Shown here piece after piece: positions 1,981-53,979 of a stretch of DNA of 64,000 bases. This DNA comes from Bacteroidia bacterium (GTDB lineage: Bacteria > Bacteroidota > Bacteroidia > UBA4408). The notes beneath the pieces were generated by a model that saw only the letters and a list, made by a program, of their open reading frames with translations, was not told where the DNA came from and searched no databases. Both the position numbers and the translations under genes were made by a program. Each line of letters opens with the position of its first letter. Positions within the stretch are counted from its first letter, which is position 1. Location of the stretch: the NCBI GenBank assembly GCA_043778625.1, contig JAYWFU010000104.1:3216-67215 (forward strand), read 5' to 3'.

Positions 1981-1989
1981 ATACCGTTT

Positions 1990-2055: not shown

Positions 2056-2595
2056 CTAGTCCAAGTCTGTTCTTTTTGGATACCTAACTAATAAATTACT
2101 ATACTTTATGTCTTCTAAGAAAAATTTTGACGAGTATATTATATCTGTAAATTTATCTCCATCACTATCAGTTACAGAACCTTCTGTAAAATAAACTAAT
2201 TGTTTTTTTTTATAAGCAGACAACAATTCTTTATTATATTTTTCATTATAATACGGAACTATAATATACCTAGTTTTTGAATACACAACTAAATTATCAT
2301 AGACGGCTGAAAGAGTCTTAAAAAGTTCATCGTTAATGAGAGCATTGGTTACTTTAACATCAACAACTCTAACGGGAATAAGTATCCATTTGTGTTTTTC
2401 TAAATTAATTCCTGAATATAATGGGATATAATTTGCAGGCAAAGAGTCTAATACAAAAGGGTTTTCTCTTATATAACAATGAACAAAATGGTTACGTCCG
2501 TTTATACTCGAACACCACTTAAATTTATTTGAATGCACTGATTCCTGACAACTACTAAAAAATAAAGATATAACTACGATTGCTATTTTTCTCAT
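2056..2595 (-). CDS. hypothetical lipoprotein
   Basis: 179 aa. N-terminus MRKIAIVVISLFFSSC is a lipoprotein signal. Flanked by MITE-like repeat copies. Confidence 0.5.
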   Translation of the reverse strand: MRKIAIVVISLFFSSCQESVHSNKFKWCSSINGRNHFVHCYIRENPFVLDSLPANYIPLYSGINLEKHKWILIPVRVVDVKVTNALINDELFKTLSAVYDNLVVYSKTRYIIVPYYNEKYNKELLSAYKKKQLVYFTEGSVTDSDGDKFTDIIYSSKFFLEDIKYSNLLVRYPKRTDLD

Positions 2596-2667
2596 TTCCC
2601 TCCTGGCTTCCGTAATGTTGGTGTACCTACAAATCCATTTTTATTCTCTATTCCTTTATTAAAGCAT

Positions 2668-2884
2668 CCCCCGCTGGCGCGAGCTTGCAGCTCGTGTCCA
2701 CTACCACTGTACCAAACCTTATTTTCTTGTTTACTATCATTAATCATTACAATTAGTTTTTATTTTTTAATGAATACGAGCAACATGCTCGCACTAGCCT
2801 AAACTACACGGTTACCTAACGCTCGCACTAGCGGGGGCACTAGCTACAACTGCTCGGTTACCTAACGCTAGAGCTAGCGGGGGG
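2668..2884. repeat. MITE-like repeat copy A (5' TIR CCCCCGCTGGCGCGAGC, 3' TIR GCTAGAGCTAGCGGGGGG; internal duplication of the 3' end)
   Basis: About 217 bp. Near-identical to copies at 35817-35986 and 36909-37079. Internal inverted repeats CGAGCA..TGCTCG. Exactly fills the gap between gene ends 2595 and 2885. Confidence 0.75.
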
Positions 2885-3328
2885 CTAAGTCAAAAATTCT
2901 TTATCTAGAAACAACCAAATTAATGATACTATAAAAGAAAGAATACTGTGTTTTTTCAAAACTTTATCTCCATTAATATTTTTTATTAGGTTATTAAAAA
3001 TTCTGATATATATTAAAATAGGAATAAAAACAAAAAAACCAATAATTCTGAATGAAAAATAGAATGAAATAAATGAAACTAAATAAATTAAAATAAAAAA
3101 GAAGAGTTTGTATTTTTTTTCAAAAACAATCAATAGAGAATTACAACTATAAATAAAAAATATATGTATCAAATAATTAAAAATTAATTCTATTCCAACA
3201 TAACCCATAGTTATACCACTATCCCAGTTTAACCACTCTATTGTCTTAGGTAAAAAATAAAAAATGTTCAACAATACTATTAAAAAATCTAAAAAATGAA
3301 GATTAATGTAATTTTTTAAATTAATCAT
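2885..3328 (-). CDS. small polytopic membrane protein, putative Rhs-toxin immunity protein
   Basis: Highly hydrophobic 147 aa product if started at ATG 3326-3328 (MINLKNYINLHFLDFLIVLL...). ORF track extends it to 3412, overlapping the upstream Rhs gene. Sits immediately downstream of the Rhs toxin tip. Confidence 0.45.
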   Translation of the reverse strand: MINLKNYINLHFLDFLIVLLNIFYFLPKTIEWLNWDSGITMGYVGIELIFNYLIHIFFIYSCNSLLIVFEKKYKLFFFILIYLVSFISFYFSFRIIGFFVFIPILIYIRIFNNLIKNINGDKVLKKHSILSFIVSLIWLFLDKEFLT

Positions 3329-3332
3329 AGTC

Positions 3333-5456
3333 TTATTTGTTTTTTGGTTTGCCTTTATATATATGTAATTTTTGATCAACAGTTTTAATTGCATTAAATG
3401 CTGCTTTATCATCTACTGTTGCAGCATGTGCTGCTTTCCCTTCCTTTTTCCAATTAATATTTTTAGAATTAGCGTCTTCAACATCTTTTAATTCATACCC
3501 ATTTTGTTTAGCCATTGGCTGAACAAGTCCCATATTATCATTGGCGTAAGTAAACTGTATTCCTCTTTTTTTCAGTTCATCTGTCATTTCAATATCGTTA
3601 GGTTGATGAACGGAAAGAAAAACTAAATTTACGGAAACCTTAACCCCCTTACGTGCAGCAGCATCTATGATACCACCTGCAATACCAACGCCTTCTGCAT
3701 TCCCTTGACTATGCATTACCACCGTCATGATATTATTATTTGTACTGACTTTTATCTCTCCTGAATTAACCATTTCCATACCCGTTTGATAACCTTCTGA
3801 TATTCTAGATTTTGCGGTTGAGCCGTGGGCATGATCGCCTGAAACAAAATGACTCTTATCATCGTTAAAATATCTTTCAATTTCTTTTGTAAAACCTTTA
3901 TTTTTTGAATTCCAATAAGAGTCTCGCAATTTATCTTGAAAATCTTGTTCACGATCGCTTGAACTTCTGTACCCTCCCAACCTATAACCATTTACAAAAA
4001 TAATGTCTTTACCATCAGGATCTATTACATTAACTGGGTTATTTGCGGCATAAGAATACGGACTTATGTCAGGGTATTTACTTGCTTTAGCATCACGTTT
4101 TGGTGTTCTTCCTAATCTTAAATCTAACCATCTATCACCCATATCTATTGTATTACCAACTCCACTTACGTCGTTAATTTTTTCTTGCCCTCCAAAACCG
4201 ATTCTTTCTGCCTCGTTAGGGTTTAGCGGTTGTTGTAGTGTGTTTTTACCGCTTTTGTACAGTGTACGTTCGGTCAGGGGTGCTCCGAATCCGCTATAAT
4301 CTGTAGCACTTAATATATCGGCTTTGTAGCCTGTTATTGCATTATTTGTAATAATTGGTATTTTGCGGTCGGAGACGGTGGTAAGCACATTATTCAAATG
4401 ATTACTTAACTCAAAATGCTTGTTGCCTAGCGTGGTGTAATAATTAAGTGTTGGGGTGGGGCTTATTAATTTTACGGTAGTGTAATCAGCCCCTAGGCGT
4501 GCGCTACCGTATAGGTTGCGCTCGGTAAGGTTAAATGTACCTGCAAGCATATCGTAGTGGTACACGGCCATGGTATTGCCCTGCGCATCGCGGGTATAGT
4601 AGTCGCTACTTAGTAGCTGTGGCACTGCATTAGTTGTGGCACTGGTGTACACGTGCTTAGCTATGCGGTTTCCGCTGGCATCGTAGTCAAACTTCAGGTC
4701 GTTTTTAGTGCTATTCATTGCACGACTAATGTACTTAATTTTTCCGTACACTGTCCATTCAATTTTATCTATTTTTTCTTGGGTATCTTTGGTAAGGTTA
4801 CCAATAGGGTCGTAGCTGTAGTTGTTACTACCATTAACATTGCTTGGGTTAAAATTGCCTTGGTCCTCTATGTCGTCAAGTGGAGTACTAGCCAGCACAA
4901 AATCATTTACATGGTATAATCTATTTTGGGTTTTGCCATTAGTAGTGGTGGCGTTGTTGTAGTTATAAGTTAAATTATCAAATGTAGCTCCGCTACCATC
5001 GTTGCGTACCTGTGTAAGTATGTTACCATTGGCATCGTAGGTAAATGTATTAAAATATTTGGTTGAACCTGCAGTTGTTGGTTGCCAAGCATTAGCTGCT
5101 ATATCCAAATTATCATAGGCCTGCGCTTGCATTAGTCTATTTAGCTGGTCGTATTGGTAGGTAAATGCGTTGGGTAGTACGGCACCTGTGGTAGGGTTGG
5201 TAATGGTGGTAACCATAGCACTAATATTACCATTGAACAAGCTTTGTGCGGCGGCTATTGCACTACCTGTTTTGTTGGCATTAAAGGTGGTAGGCGCTAC
5301 GCTTTTATAATCGCCGTTGTAGTAGTTTAGGCTATAGCCCATGGCATCTTTGGGTATTAGTTTATTGGTTCCTACCGTTCTACCGTCTTTTCCTAGGTCG
5401 TTATTGGGGTTTAGGCTTTCGGAGTTTATGCTAATTACATTTATAAAATAGTCCAA
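3333..5456 (-). CDS. Rhs/YD-repeat protein fragment with C-terminal polymorphic toxin domain (alpha/beta-hydrolase/lipase-like); likely orphan Rhs tip module
   Basis: YD repeats (YDANGNILTQ, YDASGNRIAKHVY, DYYTRDAQGNTMAVYHYD). Rhs core-end motif AANNPVNVIDPDG, followed by a unique ~250 aa tip containing a VVMHSQGN nucleophile-elbow-like motif. Only 707 aa. The first codon is TTG at 5454-5456 (no ATG), with the first in-frame ATG ~38 codons in. Confidence 0.75.
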   Translation of the reverse strand: MDYFINVISINSESLNPNNDLGKDGRTVGTNKLIPKDAMGYSLNYYNGDYKSVAPTTFNANKTGSAIAAAQSLFNGNISAMVTTITNPTTGAVLPNAFTYQYDQLNRLMQAQAYDNLDIAANAWQPTTAGSTKYFNTFTYDANGNILTQVRNDGSGATFDNLTYNYNNATTTNGKTQNRLYHVNDFVLASTPLDDIEDQGNFNPSNVNGSNNYSYDPIGNLTKDTQEKIDKIEWTVYGKIKYISRAMNSTKNDLKFDYDASGNRIAKHVYTSATTNAVPQLLSSDYYTRDAQGNTMAVYHYDMLAGTFNLTERNLYGSARLGADYTTVKLISPTPTLNYYTTLGNKHFELSNHLNNVLTTVSDRKIPIITNNAITGYKADILSATDYSGFGAPLTERTLYKSGKNTLQQPLNPNEAERIGFGGQEKINDVSGVGNTIDMGDRWLDLRLGRTPKRDAKASKYPDISPYSYAANNPVNVIDPDGKDIIFVNGYRLGGYRSSSDREQDFQDKLRDSYWNSKNKGFTKEIERYFNDDKSHFVSGDHAHGSTAKSRISEGYQTGMEMVNSGEIKVSTNNNIMTVVMHSQGNAEGVGIAGGIIDAAARKGVKVSVNLVFLSVHQPNDIEMTDELKKRGIQFTYANDNMGLVQPMAKQNGYELKDVEDANSKNINWKKEGKAAHAATVDDKAAFNAIKTVDQKLHIYKGKPKNK

Positions 5457-5475
5457 TAGTTAAATAGCGTTAAGA

Positions 5476-5560
5476 GCACCCCTCCAACGGCGAAGCCCTC
5501 ACGAAACAAAATAATAAAATAAAACTTGAGTAACAAAGGAGGGGAATTCGTGGCGTGAAT
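5476..5560. repeat. GC-rich hairpin element GCACCCCTCC...AAAGGAGGGGAA with an embedded CCTCACGAAACAA / TTCGTG half-site pair
   Basis: The same GCACCCCTCC and AAAGGAGGGGAA arms recur at 53889-53915. The CACGAAAC/TTCGTG palindrome halves recur at 54254-54280 and 61504-61568. Lies 20-80 nt 5' of the Rhs start. Confidence 0.5.
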
Positions 5561-5692
5561 ATCACATTGGACTATGTAGTATTTGTATTTGCTATTATGG
5601 CTTTTTAAAAGTATTAACTAGTTCAAAATAGTATAAAAACTCGCTCCAATAGTGTTTCTAACACTTGTGTTTTGTTAATAGCGGTTACACTC

Positions 5693-5736
5693 AACAAAAA
5701 AGCGATACTAAATTAATAGTATCGCTTTTATTTTGT
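5693..5736 (-). terminator. rho-independent terminator after rplQ
   Basis: Hairpin AAGCGATACT-AAATTAAT-AGTATCGCTT followed on the minus strand by a U-run. 30 nt downstream of the rplQ stop. Confidence 0.65.
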
Positions 5737-5765
5737 GACGTATATAAATATGTAATTTAAGTAAA

Positions 5766-6551
5766 TTACTCTTTACCTCCGTCTAGTTTTTCTTGTAAAT
5801 CTTTCAATTCAGCCCATTTGCCTTCAGCAGCTAATAAGGCTTGCTGTGCCCAAGTTGCTGGATCGTGCATTTTGTAACGATCGCCTCCTGTTAATAATAC
5901 TTCCTTTGATTTTTCTACTGAAGTTTCAGCTAATTGTTTCCAAGTTGAAATACCTGCAGCTACGTACAGTTCTTCAATTTTAGGGCCAATTCCTTCTACT
6001 ATTTTCAAATCATCTAATTTAACTTTTTTACCAAAAGCTTCGCTTGCGGCTTTAGCATTAAAATCGCCTTCAGCAACTGGTGCTGTACTAGCCATATTTG
6101 CATCAGCAACTTTAGCATCAGCAGGTTTAGGGCTACGACGCGTTGTTTTAGCTTTAGCGGGTTCAGCAGCTAATTTTCCGTTTGAGTAAATTTCGTTGAA
6201 ATCAACTAGTTCAATCATGCACATATCAGCATTATCTCCCATACGATTACCCGTTTTAATTATACGAGTATAACCTCCTGGACGAGTTGCAATTTTAGGT
6301 GCAATATCTCTAAACATAGTTGAAACAATGTCTTTATTTTTAACATAAGCAAAAACAGTACGACGATTATGCGTAGTATCAGTTTTTGATTTTGTTAATA
6401 AAGGTTCAACGTATTTTCTTAATTCTTTAGCCTTAGCTACAGTAGTAAATATTCTTTTGTGTATAACCAGTGAAGAAGCTAAATTAGCCAACAACGCTTT
6501 GCGATGTGCCGATGTTCTTCCTAAATGATTTACTTTTGATCCGTGTCTCAT
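5766..6551 (-). CDS. rplQ: 50S ribosomal protein L17 with ~110 aa C-terminal extension (Ala/Lys-rich linker plus helix-hairpin-helix-like domain)
   Basis: N-terminal 150 aa are canonical L17 ([21 protein letters not shown]...). The extension contains [28 protein letters not shown] (HhH GIGxK signature). Last gene of the alpha operon. Confidence 0.85.
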
Positions 6552-34009: not shown

Positions 34010-35084
34010 TAATTTCAGAAATTTTTCTAAAATTAGTATTTATTGTGTAATTGCTACTTACGTGTTTTAAAAACAAATTAAGTATAGTTAAATTATGCTT
34101 ATTTACCATTTTGGAATGCGATATAAATTGCATATAATTATTATTTTTAATAAACTTACAATAACATTTTAAATTAAACATGGTGAGGAGTTCCACACTT
34201 ACCATTTCGTAATTATTAGTAACTAGTTTAGTGTTATTATGGGGTGTTTTGGCTGCCTGCCCATCACCCCAAGTGGTATAGCCTAGTTTCCATAATAGTT
34301 TATTAACTAACTTACTTTTAAAATTAAACCACTTACTATTAGGGCGTTGCCAAGCACTTATACTCAGTTCAACAAAAGCTCCATTTTTATTTATTGCAGT
34401 AATATCATCTTCAAACCTGTAGATGTGTTGCTCCACTACTGTACTATAGTCGTAGTAAAAATCTTCGTTTAAATTAACGTGCTTATTCAAGCAACTAAAG
34501 TCGTATTTGATGTTGTTACGCTTAAATGTTTCAACTAAAAATTCAAATGGTTGTATGCTCCAACCTCCGGCTCGGTAGCAATCAAATTGAGCTATAGGCG
34601 CAGCTAATATTGTACTTAATAAGGCTTGACTTTGTTGCACAAGGGTGTTAACTGTATTTATATTAAGTGTGTGCAAGCGGTAATTAGTATAGTTAGTTAA
34701 TTGCCAAGTGTTAGTGTTTTCGCTGTAAGTAGCCTTATTCCAGTGTGGATGTAAGTGTATATGTATTTCCCAGCCATTGCGATGCAAAAATTGTAATTGT
34801 GCACAAATACTCTCGTAATCGTACTGGGCGTTAGCGTTATTAATTGTTTGTAATCGTAATAAATAGGTGGTATCAACAAACAAAATGCCCTTGCAACCAT
34901 AGTTTTCTAAAACTGTAAATAGCGCATTGGTAGGTTCTATAAGGCATTTAGCTACTGAACCACTGTCGTGCCCAAGATACAGTTCATAGTCAAAAGTAAA
35001 GAGTAAATGTTTGCTGTTAGATTTCAAAGCTAAATTATTGATACATATAATATCCAAGCGTAAAATTAATTTTTTGTGGCACAC
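34002..35084 (-). CDS. hypothetical protein in polysaccharide cluster (possibly deacetylase-like)
   Basis: 360 aa; FTFDYELYLGHDSGS is faintly NodB-like. Weak evidence. Confidence 0.3.
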   Translation of the reverse strand: MCHKKLILRLDIICINNLALKSNSKHLLFTFDYELYLGHDSGSVAKCLIEPTNALFTVLENYGCKGILFVDTTYLLRLQTINNANAQYDYESICAQLQFLHRNGWEIHIHLHPHWNKATYSENTNTWQLTNYTNYRLHTLNINTVNTLVQQSQALLSTILAAPIAQFDCYRAGGWSIQPFEFLVETFKRNNIKYDFSCLNKHVNLNEDFYYDYSTVVEQHIYRFEDDITAINKNGAFVELSISAWQRPNSKWFNFKSKLVNKLLWKLGYTTWGDGQAAKTPHNNTKLVTNNYEMVSVELLTMFNLKCYCKFIKNNNYMQFISHSKMVNKHNLTILNLFLKHVSSNYTINTNFRKISEIND

Positions 35085-35177
35085 GTAACAATAAATTAAT
35101 TGCCCTTACGATTAGTTGCTTTATTTAACAGATAAAATGTTAAATTAACTGATGAGTTTATCATTAAATAAGCACTA

Positions 35178-35219
35178 TAGTTATTCATTCACAGCACAAC
35201 TAGGACTAGCAGGGGGAAT
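35178..35219. repeat. sub-repeat AGTTATTCATTCACAGCACAACTAGGACTAGCAGGGGG (MITE-family fragment)
   Basis: Matches 1824-1860 nearly exactly. Ends in a degenerate TIR. Confidence 0.5.
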
Positions 35220-35727
35220 TAAAAATTTCATTCGAATTTAAAGTGTGTTTATACAAAAGATTGTCGTAATCAGCCATATTCCATTCTTTAAATTTGTAAA
35301 ATGCTTTTAAAGCATTTTCGTATCTTATAGGAGAAATTATGGTTTGATAACTTAGCCGTGCAAATTCGTTAGCAGTAGCCTCTCGTAATATTTTCCCTTT
35401 ATAATCTGTTATACTCATATCATTGGGAGATATGCCTAATTTATGGTAAGGTAAAACTATTTGACTTATATTTTCAATAAGATTTCCTATGACAGACCAA
35501 CTATTATGATATAATTTTGCATCTAGTGAATAACCTAAAAATAAAATGGGAGATGAAGAGATGTTAGCTAAATCAACAACATGTTTTAAATCCTGTCTAT
35601 AATCAAAAACAACCATAATAAAACAATCTTTTGTAATGGGAAAGTTCACTATCTGACCAAACCCTACTTGATTATTCGATAAAGGAATAGTAAATATATC
35701 TCCTACGTTTAATTTAAATTTTGCCAT
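35206..35727 (-). CDS. hypothetical protein (cassette gene between MITE-like repeats; possible immunity protein)
   Basis: 173 aa; no signal peptide. Bounded by repeat fragments. Confidence 0.45.
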   Translation of the reverse strand: MAKFKLNVGDIFTIPLSNNQVGFGQIVNFPITKDCFIMVVFDYRQDLKHVVDLANISSSPILFLGYSLDAKLYHNSWSVIGNLIENISQIVLPYHKLGISPNDMSITDYKGKILREATANEFARLSYQTIISPIRYENALKAFYKFKEWNMADYDNLLYKHTLNSNEIFNSPC

Positions 35728-35816
35728 TATTATTATCTCTTTTTTGCATTTCGCTTATTTGATAGTTTTCCATCAGGATTTTTTTTGTTTTTCACTCCCT
35801 CTTCTAAGTCAATATG

Positions 35817-35986
35817 CCCCTGCTGGCGCGAGCATGTTGCTCGTGTCCGCTACCATTGTACCAAACTTTATTTTCTTATTTACTATCATTAATTATTACA
35901 ATTAGTTTTTATTTTTTAATGAATACCAGCAACATGCTCGCACTAGCTTATACTACACGCTTACCTAACGCTAGAGCTAGCGGGGG
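35817..35986. repeat. MITE-like repeat copy B
   Basis: 170 bp, CCCCTGCTGGCGCGAGC...GCTAGAGCTAGCGGGGG. About 90 percent identical to copies A and C. Confidence 0.75.
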
Positions 35987-35994
35987 TAGCATGG

Positions 35995-36888
35995 CTAATA
36001 TTTTTCAAGATACTTTTTCCAATTATTTGGATAATCCTCTTTTATTTTTTTAAGTACAAATTCTGGTACCGGAGCATCTCGATAATCAACACCTTTATTT
36101 TTTAAAAAATCTACAACCGCCATCTTTTCTAAATACTTTTTAGAATGTAAAGGTTGTAAATCCTCCCTTAAAAGTCCAACTATATATATCTTTTCTCCTC
36201 CTTCATAAAAGTTAGCTCTGTCAAAAATCATTAACGAATAATCAGCTCCTTTTTGAAGAAGATACAAAACAACGTCGTAATGCTTAAAAAGCAAAGCTTC
36301 GGCAAGAGGAAAAGCATTAAACTCATTTTTATAATTTATATTAGCTCCAACTTCCACAAGCATTTTTACTTTTTTTATAGGAGATTGTGTTTCGGAGACA
36401 TCACTAATCGCCAATAATAAAGGGGTTTGCCTTGTTGAATTACCAACTCTTCTTTCCCCCGTTTCTTCATCGTTTGGATTACCTTTATAAGCCAGCATTA
36501 ATTGTAAAAAAGATGCGTTTTCATTTTTAAAATCTGTAATACCTGCAGAATAAATAATAGCAGATCTACCGTCATAATTACTATGTTTGTTTGGATCTGC
36601 TCCTAATTCTAACAACACTTTACATTCATTGTACTGTTTGTTTTGTACCGCTAACATTAATAATGTTTGCCCAAATATTACCTCTTGACAATTTACATCT
36701 ACCTTATCTTCAATAATTATTTTTTTAATTTTACCCGTGTCTTCATTCTCTACTGCTTTAGCTAAATCCCATACTTGAGTTCCTTGAAACAACCTATAAT
36801 CATTACCTCTTAAGGTAGATTTGTCTATGTCTTCACATGCGGAAAATAATAATGTTAACAATAGCAAAAGAATTGTTTTTTTATCCAT
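35995..36888 (-). CDS. ankyrin-repeat lipoprotein (possible polymorphic-toxin immunity protein)
   Basis: Lipoprotein signal MDKKTILLLLLTLLFSAC from ATG at 36886-36888; the ORF track start at 36903 is a TTG. Several ANK repeats follow (LLMLAVQNKQYNECKVLLELGADPN...). Confidence 0.65.
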   Translation of the reverse strand: MDKKTILLLLLTLLFSACEDIDKSTLRGNDYRLFQGTQVWDLAKAVENEDTGKIKKIIIEDKVDVNCQEVIFGQTLLMLAVQNKQYNECKVLLELGADPNKHSNYDGRSAIIYSAGITDFKNENASFLQLMLAYKGNPNDEETGERRVGNSTRQTPLLLAISDVSETQSPIKKVKMLVEVGANINYKNEFNAFPLAEALLFKHYDVVLYLLQKGADYSLMIFDRANFYEGGEKIYIVGLLREDLQPLHSKKYLEKMAVVDFLKNKGVDYRDAPVPEFVLKKIKEDYPNNWKKYLEKY

Positions 36889-36908
36889 ACGTATTTTTAC
36901 CAATTTGA

Positions 36909-37079
36909 CCCCCCGCTGGCGCGAGCATTTTGCTCGTGTCCGCTACCATTGTACCTAACCTTAATTTTCTTGTTTACTATCATTAATCATTACAATTAGT
37001 TTTTATTTTTTAATGAATACGAGCAACATGCTGGCACTAGCCTCAACTGCACGCCTACCTAACGCTAGAGCTAGCGGGG
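36909..37079. repeat. MITE-like repeat copy C
   Basis: 171 bp. Both TIRs intact. Abuts the gene start at 36888/36903 and the gene stop at 37083. Confidence 0.75.
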
Positions 37080-37082
37080 AAA

Positions 37083-37547
37083 TTATTCTGGAAAAAAAAC
37101 ATATTGCGGTTCCAACACGTATTTATCATTTAATTTTTTAATCAGATTTTCTACAATCATAATTTCACTAATATAATTGTTTTTTTCAAAATTAAAACTA
37201 TAAAAAACATCATCAAAATTAAAACCCCAACTTATAATTGATTTACCGTGACAAATATTTACTTTTCGCCATCCTGCCTCATCTGCTATTCCACTCACAC
37301 CTGTAAATATCAAAAAAAAACCAGAACATTCTGTACTTTTTTTTAATTCATCAAAATATAAAAAAGTCTCTGGGAAATGTTCATTAATTAAATTTTTTTC
37401 ATCAATAACACATTCTAGATAAGCAATGTTTGAAAAATCAATTGCGTCTATTTGAATCAAATTATCAATTAATTTTAATTTTAATTTTAATTTATTCATT
37501 GTACTATTTTTGATAAAAAGGAAAAATTGAGCTTTTTGAATTATCAA
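37083..37547 (-). CDS. hypothetical protein (cassette gene; possible immunity protein)
   Basis: 154 aa. Alternative start MNKLKL at 37499. Flanked by repeat copies C and D. Confidence 0.45.
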   Translation of the reverse strand: MIIQKAQFFLFIKNSTMNKLKLKLKLIDNLIQIDAIDFSNIAYLECVIDEKNLINEHFPETFLYFDELKKSTECSGFFLIFTGVSGIADEAGWRKVNICHGKSIISWGFNFDDVFYSFNFEKNNYISEIMIVENLIKKLNDKYVLEPQYVFFPE

Positions 37548-37669
37548 TATGATTTATAAATACTTTTACCTGGCTTGTAGGAGTATTTGGGGTACTAATA
37601 TTAAAACCTGCGTTATAAGAATATTTTGTAGCATATTTAATTCCATTCAAATCATAAAAATGTTGTTGG

Positions 37670-37734
37670 CCCCCCGCTGGCGCGAGCATTTTGCTCGTGT
37701 CCGCTACCATTGTACCTAACCTTAATTTTCTTGT
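37670..37734. repeat. MITE-like repeat copy D (5' 65 bp only, truncated)
   Basis: CCCCCCGCTGGCGCGAGCATTTTGCTCGTGTCCGCTACCATTGTACCTAACCTTAATTTTCTTGTT is identical to the 5' end of copy C, then diverges. Confidence 0.65.
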
Positions 37735-37899
37735 TATAATTATTCATTAACCTTACTCTTTTCATAAATAACTTCAACTGCTAGCTTAGCCTAAATTATA
37801 CCGCTACCTAAATAATATCTCTTGGTGTTTTAATACTTATGATAAGTATAAATATTAGCATAAAAACATTTAGTAAATATAGTACTAACAACATAAAAA

Positions 37900-37942
37900 A
37901 TAAAAACAGAATAGTCAAATAATATTTGACTATTCTGTTTTT
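37900..37942 (-). terminator. rho-independent terminator downstream of tRNA-Arg
   Basis: Hairpin ACAGAATAGTCAAAT-AAT-ATTTGACTATTCTGT followed by a T-run on both strands. Confidence 0.65.
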
Positions 37943-37943
37943 G

Positions 37944-38016
37944 TGGTCGCGCAGGGATTCGAACCCCGAACCTTCTCATCCGTAGTGAGATGCTATATCC
38001 ATTAAGCCACGCAACC
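37944..38016 (-). tRNA. tRNA-Arg (anticodon ACG)
   Basis: Hand-folded cloverleaf: acceptor GGTTGCG/CGCGACC, anticodon stem TCTCA/TGAGA with loop CTACGGA, T-arm CGGGG-TTCGAAT-CCCTG. CCA not encoded. Confidence 0.8.
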
Positions 38017-38139
38017 GTTATTATTAATTGTGGTACAAATATATTTTAAATTTATTTATATCCAAATAAAAAAAAAATAATTTATTTACCTCTTTATTAT
38101 CGTTTTTTTTAGTCTGTACTGTTGTATTATTTTTAGGTA

Positions 38140-39612
38140 CTACAAACTTATTAGCTTATCGTATAACATAGCCACAGCAAGCGAATCAGCGGTACAATAG
38201 CTTACCAAAGTTTCTTGCATTTCTACAATTTTAAACATATCGTTTTCGGTTTGCAAGTCTTCGTACATGCTTAATGCCTCTGCTCCTGTTTGTATATTAC
38301 ATAACGTATAAGGGTTAGGCATCAGCAATACTTCGGCTAAGTTTTTGAGTTTTAACGACCCTTGCATTTTTTTGTGGTAGTACCAACGGTTGTCAAATAT
38401 CGTTTTCATATCAACCATTTTATTTTTAATGTCCATAATTTGAGTAGCATATTGCGGAAACGCCGTTTTACACCAATTAAGTACATTGTGCTCTAGCCCA
38501 GTATCGTACACTACCAAAGTATTAAACGGGGTGGTATGTAGTATTAAATGCTGTACAAAAGCCAACGTAGGGTCAGCTCCTGTGGGGGCTATGTAAGCAG
38601 TGTGCAATAACTCAGCTTTGTTAGATTGCTTATGGTGCATACTATACAAAAATGGCAATTGCTGATACGCTTTATGCCCTGTAAATAATGGCACTGCAGG
38701 CATTGTTACTTCAAAATCAATAAATGCTAATGGGTAATTAAACGTACTTATAAAACGTTTAATTTCAGTAGTATTTACATGTAGTTTGTTTTCGGTAGTA
38801 GCTTCTATTTGTATTTTTTGGTTGGGGGTTAATGTTGGTTCGTTAGCCAAGTCGCGCATGTGCAATTTACCACGATTATAGTATTCTACCTTGTTGGCCA
38901 ACGACATCTCGCTTATTTCAAATATACTATCGGTGGGTAAATGTTTCCAGCAAGTTCCTTTAAAATCGCAGGTATACGGGGCATAGCAGTGCGTACCAAT
39001 ATCTACCGTAGGTATTGCAGTACTATTAACTACGGCAGTAAGTGTGGTAATGTTTTGGGCAATGGTATCCCATTTTTCAAGGGCTTCCATTTTCACACTT
39101 TGTTTTTTAAACAAGCTATGCAAGTCTACTTTTTTATCCATAACATACGCAGGGTTCATAGTTACTAAAAAAATATCATGCAATTCGGGCAAACAATTTT
39201 TTATTATATAAAACTGCAAGGCTGCGTCGTTAATATAAGTTGGGGTTATTTTGAGAGAACTTTTAACTTCGTAAGCGTACCATTTGCCATTGTCGTAGTT
39301 TAAAATATCAATCATTACCAGTGTACCATTGTATTTAAAGGTGGCTTCGTACAAGGTAGTAATACCAGCGGCTATGGCTAATTGGGTTTGCTGTTCGGCA
39401 GCGGCATAATCGTATTTTTTTACCACAATTTCTTTCCCTTTGGGGAATAATTGTTGGGCAAGTTCGCCCACCTTATGCCCACGGTTAAATAAAGCACGTT
39501 GCTCCATTGATATTTTATCGCGCCATTCGGGGTGATGTTTGTTTAAAAATAATGCTTTAGTGCATTGTAAACCCTTAATGTAGGTAGATTTACTAAGTAT
39601 ATGCTTTGCCAA
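38140..39612 (-). CDS. DUF2779-like protein (predicted PD-(D/E)XK/Cas4-like nuclease superfamily)
   Basis: 490 aa; N-terminus MAKHILSKSTYIKGLQCTKALFLNKH matches the LSKS..G.QC.K.L.L signature of DUF2779; recalled from memory. Confidence 0.5.
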   Translation of the reverse strand: MAKHILSKSTYIKGLQCTKALFLNKHHPEWRDKISMEQRALFNRGHKVGELAQQLFPKGKEIVVKKYDYAAAEQQTQLAIAAGITTLYEATFKYNGTLVMIDILNYDNGKWYAYEVKSSLKITPTYINDAALQFYIIKNCLPELHDIFLVTMNPAYVMDKKVDLHSLFKKQSVKMEALEKWDTIAQNITTLTAVVNSTAIPTVDIGTHCYAPYTCDFKGTCWKHLPTDSIFEISEMSLANKVEYYNRGKLHMRDLANEPTLTPNQKIQIEATTENKLHVNTTEIKRFISTFNYPLAFIDFEVTMPAVPLFTGHKAYQQLPFLYSMHHKQSNKAELLHTAYIAPTGADPTLAFVQHLILHTTPFNTLVVYDTGLEHNVLNWCKTAFPQYATQIMDIKNKMVDMKTIFDNRWYYHKKMQGSLKLKNLAEVLLMPNPYTLCNIQTGAEALSMYEDLQTENDMFKIVEMQETLVSYCTADSLAVAMLYDKLISL

Positions 39613-48304: not shown

Positions 48305-48826
48305 TTAATACGCACGAATGGTACTTGCGTTTACTTCCATTAAGTCGCCTTTTTGCTTGAGCACAGCTATACCTAGGTCTAGGGCTTCTTGCTCCAATTC
48401 GGCATAAAAACTAAAACTAGCTAAGCCACAGTATATGGTATAGTCAGCATAATCAGGATTAAGTGCTCTAAAATTTGGTACTTTACTTTCCACCAGCTTT
48501 ATAAGGTCGTTTTTGTGCGCTTTGTATTTACATTCGATAAGTGCTATGCTATTACCGTTGTACATTACCACATCAAATTCGTCCTGTAGGCGTTTGGTAC
48601 GTTGTTTTACGTTACGGTCCACATAATCGTAACTAATGCCCGCAAACAATTTAGACGTTTCAAGAGCGTTATAAAAATAATATTCGGCAAAGTCACCGTT
48701 GTTATGCCCTACATTTGATAATTCCCTGCTTGTGCGCTCTACTTGTGCTTCAGTTTGGGCAAAACGCAAAGCGTTTTGGGCTATAAGTTCTGCTAATGAT
48801 TGCTCTATTCTATCTATACGTTCCAT
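48305..48826 (-). CDS. PD-(D/E)XK-like nuclease-fold protein with N-terminal coiled coil (paralog 2)
   Basis: 173 aa; motif DEFDVVMYNGNSIALIECKYK (D..E.K). C-terminal ~60 aa nearly identical to 48959-49528. Confidence 0.5.
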   Translation of the reverse strand: MERIDRIEQSLAELIAQNALRFAQTEAQVERTSRELSNVGHNNGDFAEYYFYNALETSKLFAGISYDYVDRNVKQRTKRLQDEFDVVMYNGNSIALIECKYKAHKNDLIKLVESKVPNFRALNPDYADYTIYCGLASFSFYAELEQEALDLGIAVLKQKGDLMEVNASTIRAY

Positions 48827-48871
48827 GTGTAGTATATTTTTAATTTTAACACAAATATAATTATATTTTAT

Positions 48872-48907
48872 ACAACAAAGGCTACCTATCAGGTAGCCTT
48901 TGTTTGT
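48872..48907 (-). terminator. long conserved hairpin (ACAACAAAGGCTACCT-ATC-AGGTAGCCTTTGTTTGT) between the paralogs: terminator/attenuator-like
   Basis: 16 bp stem. A near-identical element at 49626-49661 precedes paralog 1. No strong U-run. Confidence 0.45.
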
Positions 48908-48958
48908 TATGTTTTAGCACAATGCACTAAGAAATTTATTCATTAAGATGGAGCTTAA

Positions 48959-49528
48959 CTAATACGCACGTATTGTACTTGCGTTTACTTCCATTAGGTC
49001 GCCTTTTTGCTTAAGTACTGCTACACCTAGGTCTAATGCTTGCTGTTCTAATTCAGAGTAAAAACTAAAGCTCGCTAAGCCACAGTATATAGTGTAGTTA
49101 GCGTAGTCGGTGTTGAGCTCTCTAAAATTACTTACCTTTTTTTCTACTAATTTCTTCAAGTCCTTTTCATGCGCTTTGTACTTGCATTCTATTAAGGCTA
49201 TGCTGTTGCCGTTGTACATTACTAAGTCAAATTCGTCTTCTAATCGGTGGCGTTTAATGTGTATGTTTTTGCTAATTGTGTCGTACTTAATTCCTGCAAA
49301 TACCATAGTTTCGCTAAGCGAATTATAAAAATAATCCTCCGCATAATCGCCATTATTGTGCCCTATGTTAGATAGTAAAGCTTCCGTTTTAGCAAAACGC
49401 TCGTCGCCTTTGGCAAACAATGCTTTGGTTTCGGCAAAGCCTCTTTGTGTTTGGGCTTGGGCTTTTTGATTTTCGGCTTGCATTAGGAGTATGCTTGCCA
49501 CTAGGTCTTTAAGTTCTTGGTCGGTCAT
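48959..49528 (-). CDS. PD-(D/E)XK-like nuclease-fold protein with N-terminal coiled coil (paralog 1)
   Basis: 189 aa; DEFDLVMYNGNSIALIECKYK; same C-terminus as paralog 2. Confidence 0.5.
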   Translation of the reverse strand: MTDQELKDLVASILLMQAENQKAQAQTQRGFAETKALFAKGDERFAKTEALLSNIGHNNGDYAEDYFYNSLSETMVFAGIKYDTISKNIHIKRHRLEDEFDLVMYNGNSIALIECKYKAHEKDLKKLVEKKVSNFRELNTDYANYTIYCGLASFSFYSELEQQALDLGVAVLKQKGDLMEVNASTIRAY

Positions 49529-49625
49529 GGGGATAGATTGGGTTTTAGATATTAGACACTAAATTTTAGACGTTAGATATATAGATGGTAGGTTTTTGTA
49601 AGTACAACAAATGTAGTTATTTTAT

Positions 49626-49661
49626 ACAACAAAGGCTACCTGTCAGGTAGCCTTTGTTTGT
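49626..49661 (-). terminator. long conserved hairpin downstream of the tail-fiber-like gene
   Basis: ACAACAAAGGCTACC-TGTC-AGGTAGCCTTTGTTTG; duplicated at 48872-48907. Confidence 0.45.
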
Positions 49662-49686
49662 TATGTTTTAGCACAAGTCGTTATTT

Positions 49687-52600
49687 TTACTTACGTTTTA
49701 AGGCTTCTATTTCTTTGCGTAGTTCTTCAATAGCTTTTTTATCAGTATCGCGCTCAGCTTTTAGCTCTTTTATTGCTTCAATAAGTATTGGAGTAAATTT
49801 GCTATAATCTACACCTTTGTAGCCATCGGCACTAGTGTTAATTAGTTGTGGGTACACTGCCTCTACCTCTTGGGCTATTACGCCTACTTGTGTGCCTTGG
49901 CCAAAGCCTTTGTCTTTGTACTCGGCTTTCATATCGTAGGTTACGCCACGTAGCTTTAGCACATTGGTTAGTGCACCTTGCAAGGTAGTAACGTTTTGCT
50001 TATAACGAGCATCACTTGGGGTAATAGTACCACTGGCTAGTATGTTGCCTATTACGTGGAGTTTTTGGGTAGGAGCATTAGTACCCATACCTATGTTACC
50101 ATTATCATAGCGAATAGCCAAACTATTAAGTGCAAGAGTTGATTCCATAACTAATACTTGATTTACTACATTACCTAGCGGGTTGTATTGAGATATTCTA
50201 AAATCTAAATCATCAGCTGCATTATCTTTAAAATCAATATAAGCTTTAGTAAAAGGTGTAGATAACTGATTACGGAATATCTCCAATTGTCCATCAGTAG
50301 ATATAATGGCTGAGCTTAGCCCATTACTATTTTCTGTAAGTACAGAACCATCTACCAAGTGGAGCTTTTGTGTGGGTGAAGCTGTACCAATACCTACGTT
50401 GCCAGTAGGTTGTATTACTATTGCGTGCGATGAGTTAGTTCTATTACCAATAGCGAAACTACCGTTAGCACTAAATCCTCCATAGGTACCTACAGATTCC
50501 AATACCCACTGTTGTCCACCTCCCCCTGTATTTTCTAATACAAAATCAACACTACCTGCTGGTGCCGCATCCTTAATATATAACTTAGCGCTTGGCGCAG
50601 TAGTACCAATACCTATGTTACCCGATGGGGCTTGCAATGTCAAAGCTACATTTGGAAACGGTAAGGTAGAGTTCCAAAAATGTAAATCTTTAGTGCCAGC
50701 GTTACTGTACATTTGCCAAGTATTGTTGTTTAAGCCTGCTGTTACGTTTTTAGCTAATGTTAAGCCAAAGTTATTTTCGGCAGTTTGTGTTATGTTTATT
50801 CGGTCGTCGGAGTTTACTAGCACGCTTAGTTTATTAGGGGGGGTTAATGTACCTATACCTACCGTGTGAGCAGCTGTTAGCACCATGGTTGTATTGTTAA
50901 TTAAGTCGTTAGTATTATTTTGTTGGCTTACTGCTCCACCTGTTATGGGGAAATTAGCTATGCCCAACGACCCACTCGAATGCTGATATATGGCACTACC
51001 TGCGTTAGATGACCCACCATCATGATCGCTTACAAACTTATTTAAAGTGGAGTTGTAATAGGTATTAAACCCTAAAAAGCCTCTGTAATTATAAAGGGCA
51101 TAAGCCCCTGTGCCTGCCGCTAAATCTCCTAACGAGTGTAAAAATATCTTGCTAGGCTCAAACGTTCCGCCCACCATAAGGGTAGCATCATTTGTAGCGT
51201 CGGTAGATACGTGTAGTTTAGCACTAGGCGCAGTTGTACCAATACCTACATTAACTTTATTAGCGGCAGTACCGCCTAATATTAAGCTATTACTTGCACC
51301 TACTTTGGCATTGTAGCCTATGGCGGTAGCGTTGGTAAATATGCTATCAGTGGCATCGGCAAGCGCACCCAAAAAGGTGTTGTTGCCCGTAGTGCTTACA
51401 AAAGCACCTGAGTTGTAACCTATGCTTGTATTGTAGTTACCAGTGGTATTGTTATACAAGGCTGATAAACCCAATGCAGTGTTGTAGCTGCCTACAGTAT
51501 TACGGCGTAGGTTAGTGTGGCCTAGCCCCACGTTTTCGTTACCTGTAGTGTTGTTAGCTAAGGCTTGGTCGCCCAATGCTACGTTTAGCGTGCCTGTAGT
51601 GTTTTGCTTTAATGCAGCTGCCCCTACAGCAGTGTTTGCGCTGGCTAAGCTATTAGTTAATGCTAAAGCTCCGATGGCTACGTTGCCTGCACCAGTGGTA
51701 TTAAGCTGCAAAGTACCCGTACCCACTGCTGTGTTAGTAGTGCCTGTGGTATTTTGTGCAAGCGAAGCGTAACCGTAAGCGGTGTTTTGTGTACCTGTGG
51801 TGGCTGGGTTTAATGCACTTACGCCAAAAGCAGTGTTTTGTAATGCGTTGTTAATTAATCCGCTCTGTAAGCCATTACGCTTAAACACTACATCTTGGTT
51901 GTCAGTTGTGCCCATAAAGTTGATAGCCGAGTTAGTACCACTATTGCCTGTAAGCCCCCAAAACAAACCGTTAGTTGGGGTGCTGGCGGTAGAAGCTGGT
52001 ATTACATCGCCATTGGCATCGGTACTTAGTACGCTTGCATTAGGTAAGTTGGTTAGGCGCAAACCACTGTTGCCTGTTGTGCCGTGGGTAATTTCTAACT
52101 TATTGTTGGGAGCATTTTGCCCAATGCCTACATTACCATTATTTAATATTGTTAGGCGAGATAAGTTGGGTGTAATATCATATATTGCTAAACCATTTAC
52201 ATCAGTTTGTATTCTAAATAAATCGCCAGCGGTAACACTCATATCAATAACTGTGTTTGTTGTATTGAATAGGTTTATACCATCGCCATTTATATCTAAT
52301 TTCCGTATAGGGGTAGTTGTACCTATACCTACGTTGCCATTGCTTTCAATGCGCATTTTTTCAGTAGCCAAAATAACTCCATTGTTGGTAGTTAAAAATT
52401 TTAAATTAGAACCTGCCTGTGTTGCGCTATGGTTTTCGGAAGTTTCACTTGTGATACCTGTTAACGAATTAGAAGTATTAAACGCTGTACCCAAATAACT
52501 TGCAAATGAAAGATAGCCCAAGCCGTCGCCTAACTGAAGAGGCGTTGGTGTGCTTAATGTGCCTCGTGCACCTTGCATGCCAAGCACACCGCCATAGGCA

Positions 52601-53979
52601 GGGGTTGTACTCATGTAATTAGTGTGGTATATACCTCTGTTATAGCCTTGGTCAACTACTTCTAATGTACCTGTTGGTGTAAACGGAGTACCTATGGCAA
52701 CAGCACCAGTAGTAAAAATACGCATGTTTTCAACTCCGTTGGTTTTAAGTACAAAATCTTGCGCATCGGTTGTACCAATAAAATTAGTGCCTGCTACTGT
52801 GCCTGCATTGCCCTTGAGTAGCCATGCTTGGGCTTTAATACTATCAGTTATGGTAGTGTTGGTTACGTTGGGTGGTGTTGTCCAAGTTGGGGCTACACCT
52901 GCGCCTGCGCTAGTAAGCACTTGCCCAGTAGTGCCAGCAAGGGTGTTAGGCATTAGTGCACCTGTAAAGCGTAGGTTACCCGTTACATCCAACGGTTGGC
53001 TGGGCAATGCTTGGTTAATACCTACGTAACCAGTACCACTTAGTATGGTTATTTTTTCGGCACTGTTGGCCACTATGTGCAAGTCGCGCGCATTAAGTGT
53101 ACCTAGTTTGTTAGTGGCACTGGCATTATTACCCTTGAGCAACCACGCTTGTGCGGCTATACTATCGGTAATAGTTTGTAGTATGTTTTGCCCGCCAATG
53201 TACAGGCTATCCATGTTGCTAACTCCTCCGTTAAATGTATTAGCAGTAATGCTATTGGTGGTTATTGTGTTGCTTTTTAGGGTATCAATTTGCCCGTTTT
53301 TAATGTAGGCATAGTTGGTGGTGCTACTATCTACTTTTAATATATTAATGTTAGCGTTGTTAATTATTGCTATATTGGTTATGCTGGTGTCTACGGTTAA
53401 TATATTAATTACGGCGTTATTAATGTTGGTATAATTAAATAGGGCAGTATCACCCTTGAGTATATTAATTATGGTGGTGCTGTTGCTATTCAAATATTTT
53501 TTAATGGCTTTGTTAAGCAAGGCGGTATCAATACTCTTGTCGCATAGATTTTTCCACGCCGTGCCGTTATAAAAATGGTAGCACGCGCTGTCGGTGTTAT
53601 ATATTAATAAGGCAGCTTCGGTGGTAGTGGTGGCTATGGCTAACATTGCGGGGGTGTTCATGCGTGGTGCCATAAAACCTTTGTCAGTTGCTTTTAGTTC
53701 CAATATAGCTTTGCTATTGGGGGTGGTGGTACCTATGCCTACGTTGTTTTGGGCTTGGGTGGTTACAAATGAACACGCAACAATTAGTAGGGTTAGATAA
53801 TAGTATTTAGATGTTAGACAGTACAGGCTAGATTTTATGCTGTTAGCTACTAGGCTTATGTGGCGGGTGATACCACCCCGCCCTGCGGGCACCCCTCCTA
53901 AAAAAGGAGGGGAACAGCATGGTGTGAGTGTGTTAGTTTGAGTGACTTGATTTGCGATGGTGAGTAATAGTGTTTTCAT
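49687..53979 (-). CDS. giant tail-fiber-like surface protein with VGIGTT..P..KL repeats, Hep_Hag/YadA-head-like NTA.G..AL..NTTG repeats and C-terminal peptidase S74 (endosialidase intramolecular chaperone) domain
   Basis: 1430 aa. Repeats such as NVGIGTTTPNSKAILEL, NIGIGTTAPSAKLYI. C-terminus SDARYKQNVTTLQGALTNVLKLRGVTYDM...GVIAQEVEAVYPQLI...ILIEAIKELKAE is a typical S74 chaperone domain. The annotated N-terminal 60 aa translate a GC-rich hairpin element, so the true start is uncertain. Confidence 0.7.
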   Translation of the reverse strand: MKTLLLTIANQVTQTNTLTPCCSPPFLGGVPAGRGGITRHISLVANSIKSSLYCLTSKYYYLTLLIVACSFVTTQAQNNVGIGTTTPNSKAILELKATDKGFMAPRMNTPAMLAIATTTTEAALLIYNTDSACYHFYNGTAWKNLCDKSIDTALLNKAIKKYLNSNSTTIINILKGDTALFNYTNINNAVINILTVDTSITNIAIINNANINILKVDSSTTNYAYIKNGQIDTLKSNTITTNSITANTFNGGVSNMDSLYIGGQNILQTITDSIAAQAWLLKGNNASATNKLGTLNARDLHIVANSAEKITILSGTGYVGINQALPSQPLDVTGNLRFTGALMPNTLAGTTGQVLTSAGAGVAPTWTTPPNVTNTTITDSIKAQAWLLKGNAGTVAGTNFIGTTDAQDFVLKTNGVENMRIFTTGAVAIGTPFTPTGTLEVVDQGYNRGIYHTNYMSTTPAYGGVLGMQGARGTLSTPTPLQLGDGLGYLSFASYLGTAFNTSNSLTGITSETSENHSATQAGSNLKFLTTNNGVILATEKMRIESNGNVGIGTTTPIRKLDINGDGINLFNTTNTVIDMSVTAGDLFRIQTDVNGLAIYDITPNLSRLTILNNGNVGIGQNAPNNKLEITHGTTGNSGLRLTNLPNASVLSTDANGDVIPASTASTPTNGLFWGLTGNSGTNSAINFMGTTDNQDVVFKRNGLQSGLINNALQNTAFGVSALNPATTGTQNTAYGYASLAQNTTGTTNTAVGTGTLQLNTTGAGNVAIGALALTNSLASANTAVGAAALKQNTTGTLNVALGDQALANNTTGNENVGLGHTNLRRNTVGSYNTALGLSALYNNTTGNYNTSIGYNSGAFVSTTGNNTFLGALADATDSIFTNATAIGYNAKVGASNSLILGGTAANKVNVGIGTTAPSAKLHVSTDATNDATLMVGGTFEPSKIFLHSLGDLAAGTGAYALYNYRGFLGFNTYYNSTLNKFVSDHDGGSSNAGSAIYQHSSGSLGIANFPITGGAVSQQNNTNDLINNTTMVLTAAHTVGIGTLTPPNKLSVLVNSDDRINITQTAENNFGLTLAKNVTAGLNNNTWQMYSNAGTKDLHFWNSTLPFPNVALTLQAPSGNIGIGTTAPSAKLYIKDAAPAGSVDFVLENTGGGGQQWVLESVGTYGGFSANGSFAIGNRTNSSHAIVIQPTGNVGIGTASPTQKLHLVDGSVLTENSNGLSSAIISTDGQLEIFRNQLSTPFTKAYIDFKDNAADDLDFRISQYNPLGNVVNQVLVMESTLALNSLAIRYDNGNIGMGTNAPTQKLHVIGNILASGTITPSDARYKQNVTTLQGALTNVLKLRGVTYDMKAEYKDKGFGQGTQVGVIAQEVEAVYPQLINTSADGYKGVDYSKFTPILIEAIKELKAERDTDKKAIEELRKEIEALKRK
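53861..53915. repeat. GC-rich hairpin element (GGCGGGTG-ATAC-CACCCCGCC; GCACCCCTCC-TAAAAA-AGGAGGGGAA) inside the annotated 5' end of the tail-fiber-like gene
   Basis: Shares the GCACCCCTCC and AAAGGAGGGGAA arms with the element at 5476-5560. GC content sharply above local background. Confidence 0.55.

Follow-up and report, generated by a model that had tools for sequence, protein, structure and literature searches.

A REPIN-type repeat family between the genes of a small, probably decaying toxin–immunity islet in a Bacteroidia genome

Introduction

Repetitive extragenic palindromes (REPs) are marked by a conserved GTAG or CGTC tag at one end (PMC3733652). Together with REP doublets forming hairpins (REPINs) and the tyrosine transposases associated with REPs (RAYTs), they make up the described system closest to the repeats considered here, the nearest branch being the Bacteroidetes RAYTs of subclass 2.6/group 5 (PMC3116915, PMC5581495, PMC6006769). 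This subclass is found mostly in Bacteroidetes, and on either side of its genes lie unusual secondary structures that are repeated in the genome (PMC6006769). We analyzed a 64-kb stretch of DNA, hereafter the window, of contig JAYWFU010000104.1 (positions 3,216 to 67,215) in the Bacteroidia bacterium assembly GCA_043778625.1, the source sample of which is a metagenome (Logan SRR14689469 / ENA BUSI22-1 / SAMN19433746). In this window, three small co-oriented genes next to a tRNA-Arg gene are separated by copies of a repeat of about 170 bp. Judged by its sequence, the 170-bp unit is a composite of the REPIN or BIME (bacterial interspersed mosaic element) type that belongs to a RAYT-linked REP family, and the islet is probably a small, decaying orphan toxin–immunity set that was colonized by such elements, which then recombine.

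The unit shares with REPs and REPINs a short GC-rich intergenic hairpin, its arrangement as an inverted doublet that folds as one, a location behind stop codons and the lack of a target-site duplication, and in related contigs its hairpin borders a lone gene for a Y1/HUH transposase. It differs from them in its spacer of ~85 nt, in a 46-nt tail (doubled in one copy), in the lack of a RAYT gene in the window, and in that its copies occur there only in toxin/immunity loci. The BIMEs of Enterobacteria are likewise mosaics of alternating REP hairpins and short motifs that cluster in 3' intergenic regions, a pattern seen in one of the related contigs (L113, below), but they represent another sequence family in another phylum.

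Several kinds of gene array also invite comparison. Orphan immunity arrays with repetitive intergenic sequence are known from Bacteroidales as rAID-1 (bioRxiv 10.1101/471110; PMC12247911). Like the islet, they are composed of co-oriented, short (~100–300 codons), low-GC orphan immunity genes with conserved intergenic repeats in a member of the Bacteroidota; unlike them, the islet has no XerD-like recombinase at its 5' end or anywhere in the 64 kb, its upstream neighbors are the tRNA-Arg and a DUF2779 gene, it holds three genes only with a REP doublet between them, and its host is not a gut Bacteroidales. Orphan arrays of Rhs C-terminal toxin (Rhs-CT) and immunity modules (PMC3150448, PMC3967940) resemble the islet in having a toxin C-terminal fragment with its immunity gene immediately behind and additional immunity genes nearby, and a full Rhs-type gene accompanied by the same repeat lies elsewhere in the window. 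In the islet, however, core homology is lost, the nearest Rhs-type gene is 33 kb away and the junctions are REPINs instead of core fragments. The islet is possibly what remains of an Rhs orphan array.

Integron arrays, such as those with VCRs (the attC-type repeats of Vibrio), also consist of promoterless, co-oriented small genes that are each followed by a similar imperfect palindrome. The islet differs from them in lacking IntI and inverted R'' (RYYYAAC)/R' (GTTRRRY) sites, in the length of its repeat (~170 bp versus 57–141 bp for attC) and in the link of the repeat to a Y1 transposase. Chromosomal integron arrays with VCRs also have near-identical attC sites, which weakens the contrast that an earlier note on this DNA, made from the letters alone, had drawn between near-identical repeats in the islet and variable attC sites. 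In Neisseria, intergenic mosaic elements (NIMEs) with dRS3 and the Correia elements are small inverted-end repeats that gather near variable cassettes for surface proteins or toxins and are thought to promote recombination; their sequences and phylum are unrelated to those considered here, and they are not of the REP/RAYT type. Correia elements are mentioned in PMC10210955.

Results

Every gene between positions 34002 and 39612 lies on the minus strand. In gene direction, the DUF2779 gene is followed by the tRNA-Arg with its terminator, repeat D, an open reading frame (ORF) of 68 aa, an ORF of 138 or 154 aa, repeat C, the ankyrin gene, repeat B, the 173-aa gene and the repeat remnant G (Table 1); beyond this remnant, a polysaccharide-type gene cluster extends from 35084 on. 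The repeats, the three co-oriented small genes and the adjoining tRNA-Arg and DUF2779 genes that the earlier note had named are all real.

A full repeat unit runs from a C-run (CCCCCC in copy C) through the left REP hairpin, an AT-rich spacer of ~85 nt and an inverted right hairpin to a 46-nt tail. The left hairpin, CGAGCN-3 nt-N'GCTCG, is embedded in GCTGGCGC...TGTCC, and the right one is the same hairpin inverted (GAATAC...GCACTAGC); the tail ends in GCTAGCGGGG, and the unit has inverted termini (CCCCGCTGGC / GCTAGCGGGG). Hairpins of this form occur eight times in the window, with the left and right ones inverted relative to each other in A, B and C. As single-stranded DNA, the unit is predicted to fold end to end (free energies of -29.2 and -24.9 kcal/mol, z scores of -3.6 and -3.5), and differences in the stems are compensatory, with GAGCT/AGCTC in A where B–D have GAGCA/TGCTC, and CGAGCA/TGCTCG where piece F has CCAGCA/TGCTGG.

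Aligned with gaps, copies A, B and C are about 91% identical to one another, a likeness far beyond chance. Copy D is 100% identical to C over 65 nt and only about 65% alike in its right part; it is not truncated, as had been proposed, but continues as a degenerate half to about 37830. All four combinations of two paired sites are represented among the right hairpins of copies A, B and C and piece F. This distribution, the hybrid nature of D and the toxin gene cut at its junction (below) fit recombination among the copies. A segmental duplication of gene plus repeat was rejected as the origin of the array, as the three genes are unrelated and the likeness stops at the repeat ends.

The earlier note had regarded the repeats as a MITE-like (miniature inverted-repeat transposable element) family. 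They instead fall into the REP/REPIN class, and an origin as a MITE derived from an insertion sequence was discarded, since no target-site duplication is common to the sequences on either side of the four copies A–D. It had also been proposed that the repeats abut both stop and start codons. This is borne out for stops, with gaps of 0 nt (A, 175-aa ORF), 3 nt (C, 138-aa gene) and 8 nt (B, ankyrin gene), and not in general for starts, from which they are separated by 20 nt (C to the ankyrin ATG at 36888; 5 nt if translation begins at a TTG) and 89 nt (B to the Imm26 ATG). Independent assembly of short reads from the source sample gave two contigs (Logan, SRR14689469; L001 and L124) that end at the array edges, ~430 nt past the DUF2779 gene and 125 nt before a 360-aa gene. 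Breaking at repeats is the behavior expected of a multi-copy repeat and hints that multiple copies exist.

Table 1 Features of the window discussed in the text (position 1 is the first letter of the window)
Feature	Position	Strand	Evidence or remark
Piece H, inverted copy	1607-1660	.	Repeat comparison
Piece E, tail with degenerate hairpin	1828-1898	.	Repeat comparison
Piece F, solo right hairpin with compensated stem CCAGCA/TGCTGG	1987-2023	.	Repeat comparison
179-aa lipoprotein ORF, candidate orphan immunity gene	2056..2595	-	Followed by repeat pieces F, E
Repeat A, full composite, 46-nt tail unit duplicated in tandem	2667..2884	+	33 kb from the array
175-aa membrane ORF, candidate cognate immunity gene	2885..3412	-	Overlaps Rhs gene 3' end; GC 19%
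Rhs/YD-repeat toxin gene, 707 aa, core end (...NPVNVIDPDGKD) plus C-terminal toxin domain	3333..5456	-	Pfam RHS_repeat; TIGR03696, TIGR01643
Remnant G, degenerate right hairpin plus tail end	35178..35216	+	94% identical to 1828-1860
173-aa protein, Imm26 family	35206..35727	-	Pfam PF15428, 43.8 bits (cut-off 23.3), E 3.5e-11
Repeat B, full composite	35817..35986	+	~91-92% identical to A and C
Ankyrin-repeat lipoprotein, candidate immunity protein	35995..36888 (or 36903)	-	Pfam Ank_2 8.3e-18; lipobox LLFSAC
Repeat C, full composite	36909..37079	+	Left hairpin 36923-36936, inverted right hairpin 37021-37034
138-aa immunity-family protein, cognate type for the toxin stump	37083..37499 (154 aa: to 37547)	-	Homologues behind toxins in L128, L130
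Toxin remnant, last 52 codons of an Rhs-delivered C-terminal domain	37504..37665	-	phmmer
Repeat D, hybrid or gene-converted copy	37670..37830	+	Left half 37670-37735; right half degenerate
Intrinsic terminator hairpin of tRNA-Arg	37902..37942	-	Terminator scan
tRNA-Arg (anticodon ACG)	37943..38016	-	ARAGORN; Rfam tRNA
DUF2779 gene	38140-39612	-	ORF list, Pfam

The hairpin, unlike the rest of the unit, is widespread. A metagenome scan with the pattern GCTGGCGCGAGCN5GCTCGTGTCC returned at least 120 stretches, and the family counts given in this text hold among the matches listed. Nearly all of these stretches are low-GC, Bacteroidota-like DNA. Watson–Crick pairing at the innermost stem position holds in 117 of 118 non-redundant copies (T:A 49, G:C 43, A:T 23, C:G 2); 165 of 185 non-redundant copies are not within any ORF of 80 aa or more, and the commonest arrangement is a short convergent doublet (19 cases). 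At about 30 loci, an ORF of ~183 aa adjoins the hairpin or lies between inverted hairpins. One such ORF, in contig L009 with REPs at 5831 (+) and 6467 (-) around it, matches Y1_Tnp in Pfam and NF047646, 'REP-associated tyrosine transposase', in NCBIfam (90.4 bits; cut-off, 80). The ORF conforms, in size and through its motifs WQ and YVHQNP, to RAYTs of subclass 2.6/group 5. Another contig (L113, 4216-4678) carries seven REP hairpins of mixed orientation in a 545-nt gap between topA and a RAYT gene, forming a BIME-like cluster. The CGTC tag is found in the loop (GAGCGTCTCGCTC) of many family members and not in the window copies.

The position of the family relative to genes is biased, with 46 of the 185 non-redundant REPs within 50 nt of a stop codon and only 7 within 50 nt of a start codon, indicating that abutting stop codons is a property of the REP family. 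Its neighbors are diverse: the 141 non-redundant ORFs represent 102 Pfam families, e.g., topoisomerase, PdxA, and glutamate and malate dehydrogenase, and the 41 genes with a stop abutting a REP encode, among others, PdxA, MsrA/B, thioesterase, RelE/ParE, AIPR and many small unannotated lipoproteins. The family is clearly not dedicated to immunity cassettes. As it stands behind the stops of unrelated genes, its position in the array needs no special cassette mechanism. The earlier proposal that the locus may represent an undescribed way of assembling cassettes with a MITE as junction module is therefore not upheld; the repeat class is known, it also occurs behind the stops of unrelated genes, and rAID-1 arrays have already been described.

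Beyond the hairpin, which is the sole part common to other contigs, the composite is specific to this lineage. None of the metagenome loci listed (at least 120) contains the tail, the spacer or the sequence that follows the left hairpin. A scan of genome contigs with the sequence after the left hairpin (CTCGTGTCCRCTACCAYTGTACC) gave a single chance match, inside aroA of a proteobacterial metagenome-assembled genome (MAG), a scan of viral contigs with the right hairpin gave no match, and a protein search with the translated repeat, aimed at spurious ORFs of other copies, gave nothing.

The three genes between the repeats have a GC content of 23–31%, compared with 35.6% for the window. A Pfam search identified the 173-aa protein as a member of Imm26; the final three codons of its gene and the TAG stop fall within repeat remnant G. 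The ankyrin-repeat lipoprotein comprises 297 aa if started at ATG 36888, with a TTG at 36903 as the alternative. The third gene, previously read as 154 aa, more likely encodes 138 aa from ATG 37499 and is so called in the public assembly, too. Its product shares 39% identity (E 4e-35) with a protein encoded at 5122-5562 of contig L128 and 42% identity (E 5e-35) with one encoded at 1123-1548 of contig L130; these two contigs are unrelated, and both homologues overlap the 3' ends of toxin genes (P0125 and P0139). The 138-aa protein has no match in Pfam, NCBIfam or PADLOC, a word-indexed homologue search retrieved only the protein itself, and an AlphaFold2 model computed without an alignment was unusable (pLDDT 33).

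The 68-aa ORF (37504-37710) upstream of this gene is a toxin remnant joined to a repeat, as its ATG and first 15 codons are supplied by repeat D. An exhaustive phmmer search with the ORF found 22 other proteins at 31–58% identity. In 20 of them (63–513 aa in length), the last ~50 residues align to ORF residues 16–68 with 41–58% identity; the other two are multi-stretch alignments to long repetitive proteins. Rhs_assc_core scores above the NCBIfam cut-off in four of the seven matches tested, upstream of the common C-terminal domain, which identifies the matches as Rhs-delivered toxin modules. In gene orientation, repeat D gives way to the stump with no sequence between them, and the stop codon of the stump is separated by a 4-nt gap from the start of the 138-aa gene. 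Given the stump and the adjoining homologue of the toxin partners, the interval 37083-37665 represents a decayed toxin–immunity module. The earlier statement that no toxin gene is present consequently needs qualification; no intact toxin lies in the array, yet there is the 52-codon stump in it and an Rhs-type toxin gene elsewhere in the window.

The C-terminal domain to which the stump belongs has no Pfam or NCBIfam entry. It spans ~100 aa with the motif DF[VI]SxHAYxRHKYD...SRVIINH...QFPFY, is present in ~20 representative proteins (among P0123-P0144) as a fusion to Rhs core ends or alternative N-terminal regions and is paired with a conserved downstream protein of ~140 aa. From the sequences, domain and partner look like an undescribed toxin/immunity pair (L128:4001-5562, L130:132-1548). 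In contig L128 (1028-5562), the pair directly follows two tyrosine recombinase genes, a SocA_Panacea gene and a 155-aa ORF, and the contig ends 55 nt past the immunity gene.

Repeat copies also occur at a second locus 33 kb away, around the 707-aa Rhs/YD-repeat toxin gene and the two candidate immunity genes that follow it (Table 1). All eight hairpins of the window fall within these two toxin/immunity loci, and five of five candidate immunity genes are followed by a repeat copy or remnant. The 179-aa lipoprotein has no family match in Pfam, NCBIfam or PADLOC. The toxin gene has a TTG start and is short for an Rhs protein. Its place is immediately downstream of rplQ, where the ribosomal rpoA–rplQ operon ends (3333-6551), and a ribosomal-operon end is an unusual neighborhood for a polymorphic toxin. 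Adjoining this locus are two tandem paralogous lipoproteins of 188 aa (190-1325) with the motif CGG.CKPC and no family match.

The closest homologues of the DUF2779 protein are 96%, 84% and 76% identical, and the rest, all at or below 53% identity, are Bacteroidia/Bacteroidota MAG proteins. On the contig of the 96% relative (L125), blastn aligns window positions 40513-37943 at 87.5%, and homology ends exactly at the 3' end of the tRNA; beyond the tRNA, this contig has no cassettes and no REP. In the other two of these three relatives (L126, L127), this position is occupied by a sulfatase gene in one and by rpmG with an unrelated ankyrin gene in the other. The ankyrin gene of L127, which lies beside DUF2779, was considered as an orthologue of the window ankyrin gene and found not to be orthologous. 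With the array absent from L125 and other neighbors in L126 and L127, the cassette genes are not conserved core genes, an outcome that the earlier note had named as decisive against its reading if it were otherwise. Evidence for an island is weak, as synteny is poor on both sides. That note's suggestion of an immunity islet is nonetheless supported by the Imm26 protein, the homologues of the 138-aa protein behind Rhs toxins, the toxin stump, the low GC content and the lack of conservation in relatives.

Pfam tables for the neighbors and domain scans of the larger ORFs showed no integrase, recombinase, RAYT or other transposase in the window, and tblastn searches of the window with the two L128 integrases gave a best E value of 1.4. 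The view that the array is no integron and lacks an integrase thus stands for the window, which also has no inverted core sites. A classical tRNA-integrated island was rejected as well, because no integrase was found and the far side of the array carries no direct copy of the tRNA 3' end.

Elsewhere in the window, two paralogous proteins of 173 and 189 aa (48305-49676) consist solely of a Card1/Csx1-type PD-(D/E)xK nuclease domain, without CARF. Each of their genes is followed by a 59-nt terminator-like palindrome (48864-48922 and 49618-49676, 98% identical), and both lie downstream of a gene for a 1430-aa protein with a Peptidase_S74 (endosialidase chaperone) C-terminus (49687-53979).

Discussion

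The observations are probably best explained by a small orphan toxin–immunity set that is in decay and was colonized by elements of the REPIN/BIME type. In this scenario, a RAYT (an HUH/Y1 enzyme) would mobilize REPIN elements in trans, and the elements would insert or persist just behind stop codons and gather in dispensable, horizontally acquired DNA. Several co-oriented copies of ~90–100% identity at distances of a few hundred bases would then serve as substrates for homologous recombination and gene conversion. Such recombination may have trimmed the toxin genes and could delete or reshuffle units of gene plus repeat.

Several observations weigh against this explanation. No RAYT gene lies within the 64-kb window, and the exact composite was found in no other contig searched and could be confined to toxin/immunity loci. 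Passive accumulation explains only loosely that eight of eight hairpins fall in two toxin/immunity loci. The spacer of ~85 nt and the extra tail are atypical for classical REPINs, and no target-site preference or transposition footprint was identified.

An alternative, for which the confinement to two loci speaks, is a weaker form of the earlier proposal. In it, REPs and REPINs would act as a functional junction module of Bacteroidota toxin–immunity cassettes, by which modules could be captured, stacked and swapped among loci and strains. A 30–170-bp repeat behind the immunity gene would provide downstream homology or a RAYT-dependent break, with the Rhs core as the upstream homology. In addition to the repeats behind all five candidate immunity genes and the exact start of the stump at the end of D, this idea draws on the Rhs loci among the metagenome matches. 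Eleven of the 119 REP-selected loci harbor Rhs core ends (20 matches over 634 kb in total). This density seems well above the genome average, given general Rhs numbers. In eight loci, the small ORF next after an Rhs or orphan Rhs-CT gene has a REP 7–72 nt behind it on the same strand.

Contig L086 (1-10478; L038 and L107 are alike) carries an Rhs locus of Flavobacteriia type that has four orphan CT/immunity modules. In its five-module array, each of the four inter-module gaps opens with a REP-like hairpin, a different variant in each, and gap-to-gap homology starts right after the hairpin, which places the REP at the breakpoint between variable and constant sequence. The gaps are laid out as immunity stop, REP-like hairpin (four variants of two types), conserved terminator (AAACCACTGC..GCGGTGGTTTT) and a 3' fragment of the Rhs core.

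We nevertheless regard a junction module as unlikely. The REP family also stands behind PdxA, MsrA/B, topoisomerase, thioesterase and toxin–antitoxin genes and forms ordinary BIME-like clusters, and the toxin/immunity pairs of L128 and L130, which are homologous to the window module, have no REP. Within the loci, the density of Rhs ends near REPs and that far from them differ by only about 2.3-fold, a contrast drawn from counts that are not independent, and the enrichment is without a proper genome-wide control. Moreover, a cassette swap that has its breakpoints inside the repeats is seen in no pair of strains. Should the module exist, which is doubtful, it would travel as toxin CT, immunity gene and REP, with the REP, shared by many genomes of one lineage, as its 3' boundary or crossover point and the Rhs core upstream.

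A role at the RNA level, for which the repeats would mainly be kept as stem-loops of 3' untranslated regions or between cistrons that stabilize, insulate or process the transcripts of the immunity genes, as is the case for some enterobacterial REPs, is compatible with colonization of a decaying islet, and as the main reason for their presence it appears quite improbable. The repeats lie 0–8 nt behind stops on the transcribed strand, between co-oriented genes without recognizable promoters of their own; scans for sigma-70 promoters and intrinsic terminators did not exceed chance, and TAnnTTTG, the -7 motif of Bacteroidetes, is neither enriched nor located in front of the genes, the only minus-strand occurrence upstream of the three genes being within the 138-aa ORF. 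The predicted RNA fold (-53.2 kcal/mol, z -2.7) and the covariation of the stems would also suit such a role. However, the repeats have no U-tract and are not intrinsic terminators, the tRNA-Arg hairpin being the sole terminator-like site within 34900-38100; they have no match in Rfam at the gathering cut-off and E<=1, and recognition of single-stranded DNA by a RAYT explains the covariation equally well.

That the islet is an integron-like or rAID-like array, in which the repeats are sites for a tyrosine recombinase encoded elsewhere, is very improbable: three published features of rAID-1 arrays are present (short co-oriented, low-GC, immunity-type genes with repetitive intergenic sequence), the repeat is an imperfect palindrome like attC and the homologous pair in L128 adjoins two Phage_integrase genes, but no integrase or recombinase was found in the window, the RYYYAAC-type ACCTAAC (GTTAGGT on the gene strand) occurs at 36953 and 37057 in direct and not inverted orientation, the unit exceeds attC sites in length, a Y1 transposase is the enzyme to which the hairpin family is linked and no direct repeat of the tRNA 3' end is present.

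REP/REPIN elements and orphan immunity islets are each known, and the results presented here are mainly annotation, with the repeated co-occurrence of the two as a modest new lead. They provide a concrete REP sequence, CCCC-GCTGGCGC-GAGCN-3nt-N'GCTC-GTGTCC, for a poorly described, Bacteroidetes-specific RAYT group and define a pair of toxin domain and immunity protein without a Pfam entry. Were a junction module to exist, it would constitute a recombinase-free counterpart of integron attC sites and rAID intergenic motifs, and would explain both immunity-only islets punctuated by REPINs and toxins trimmed at REP boundaries. If REPs mark the breakpoints of module exchange, a 'domesticated' transposase system would be linked to the evolution of interbacterial defense.

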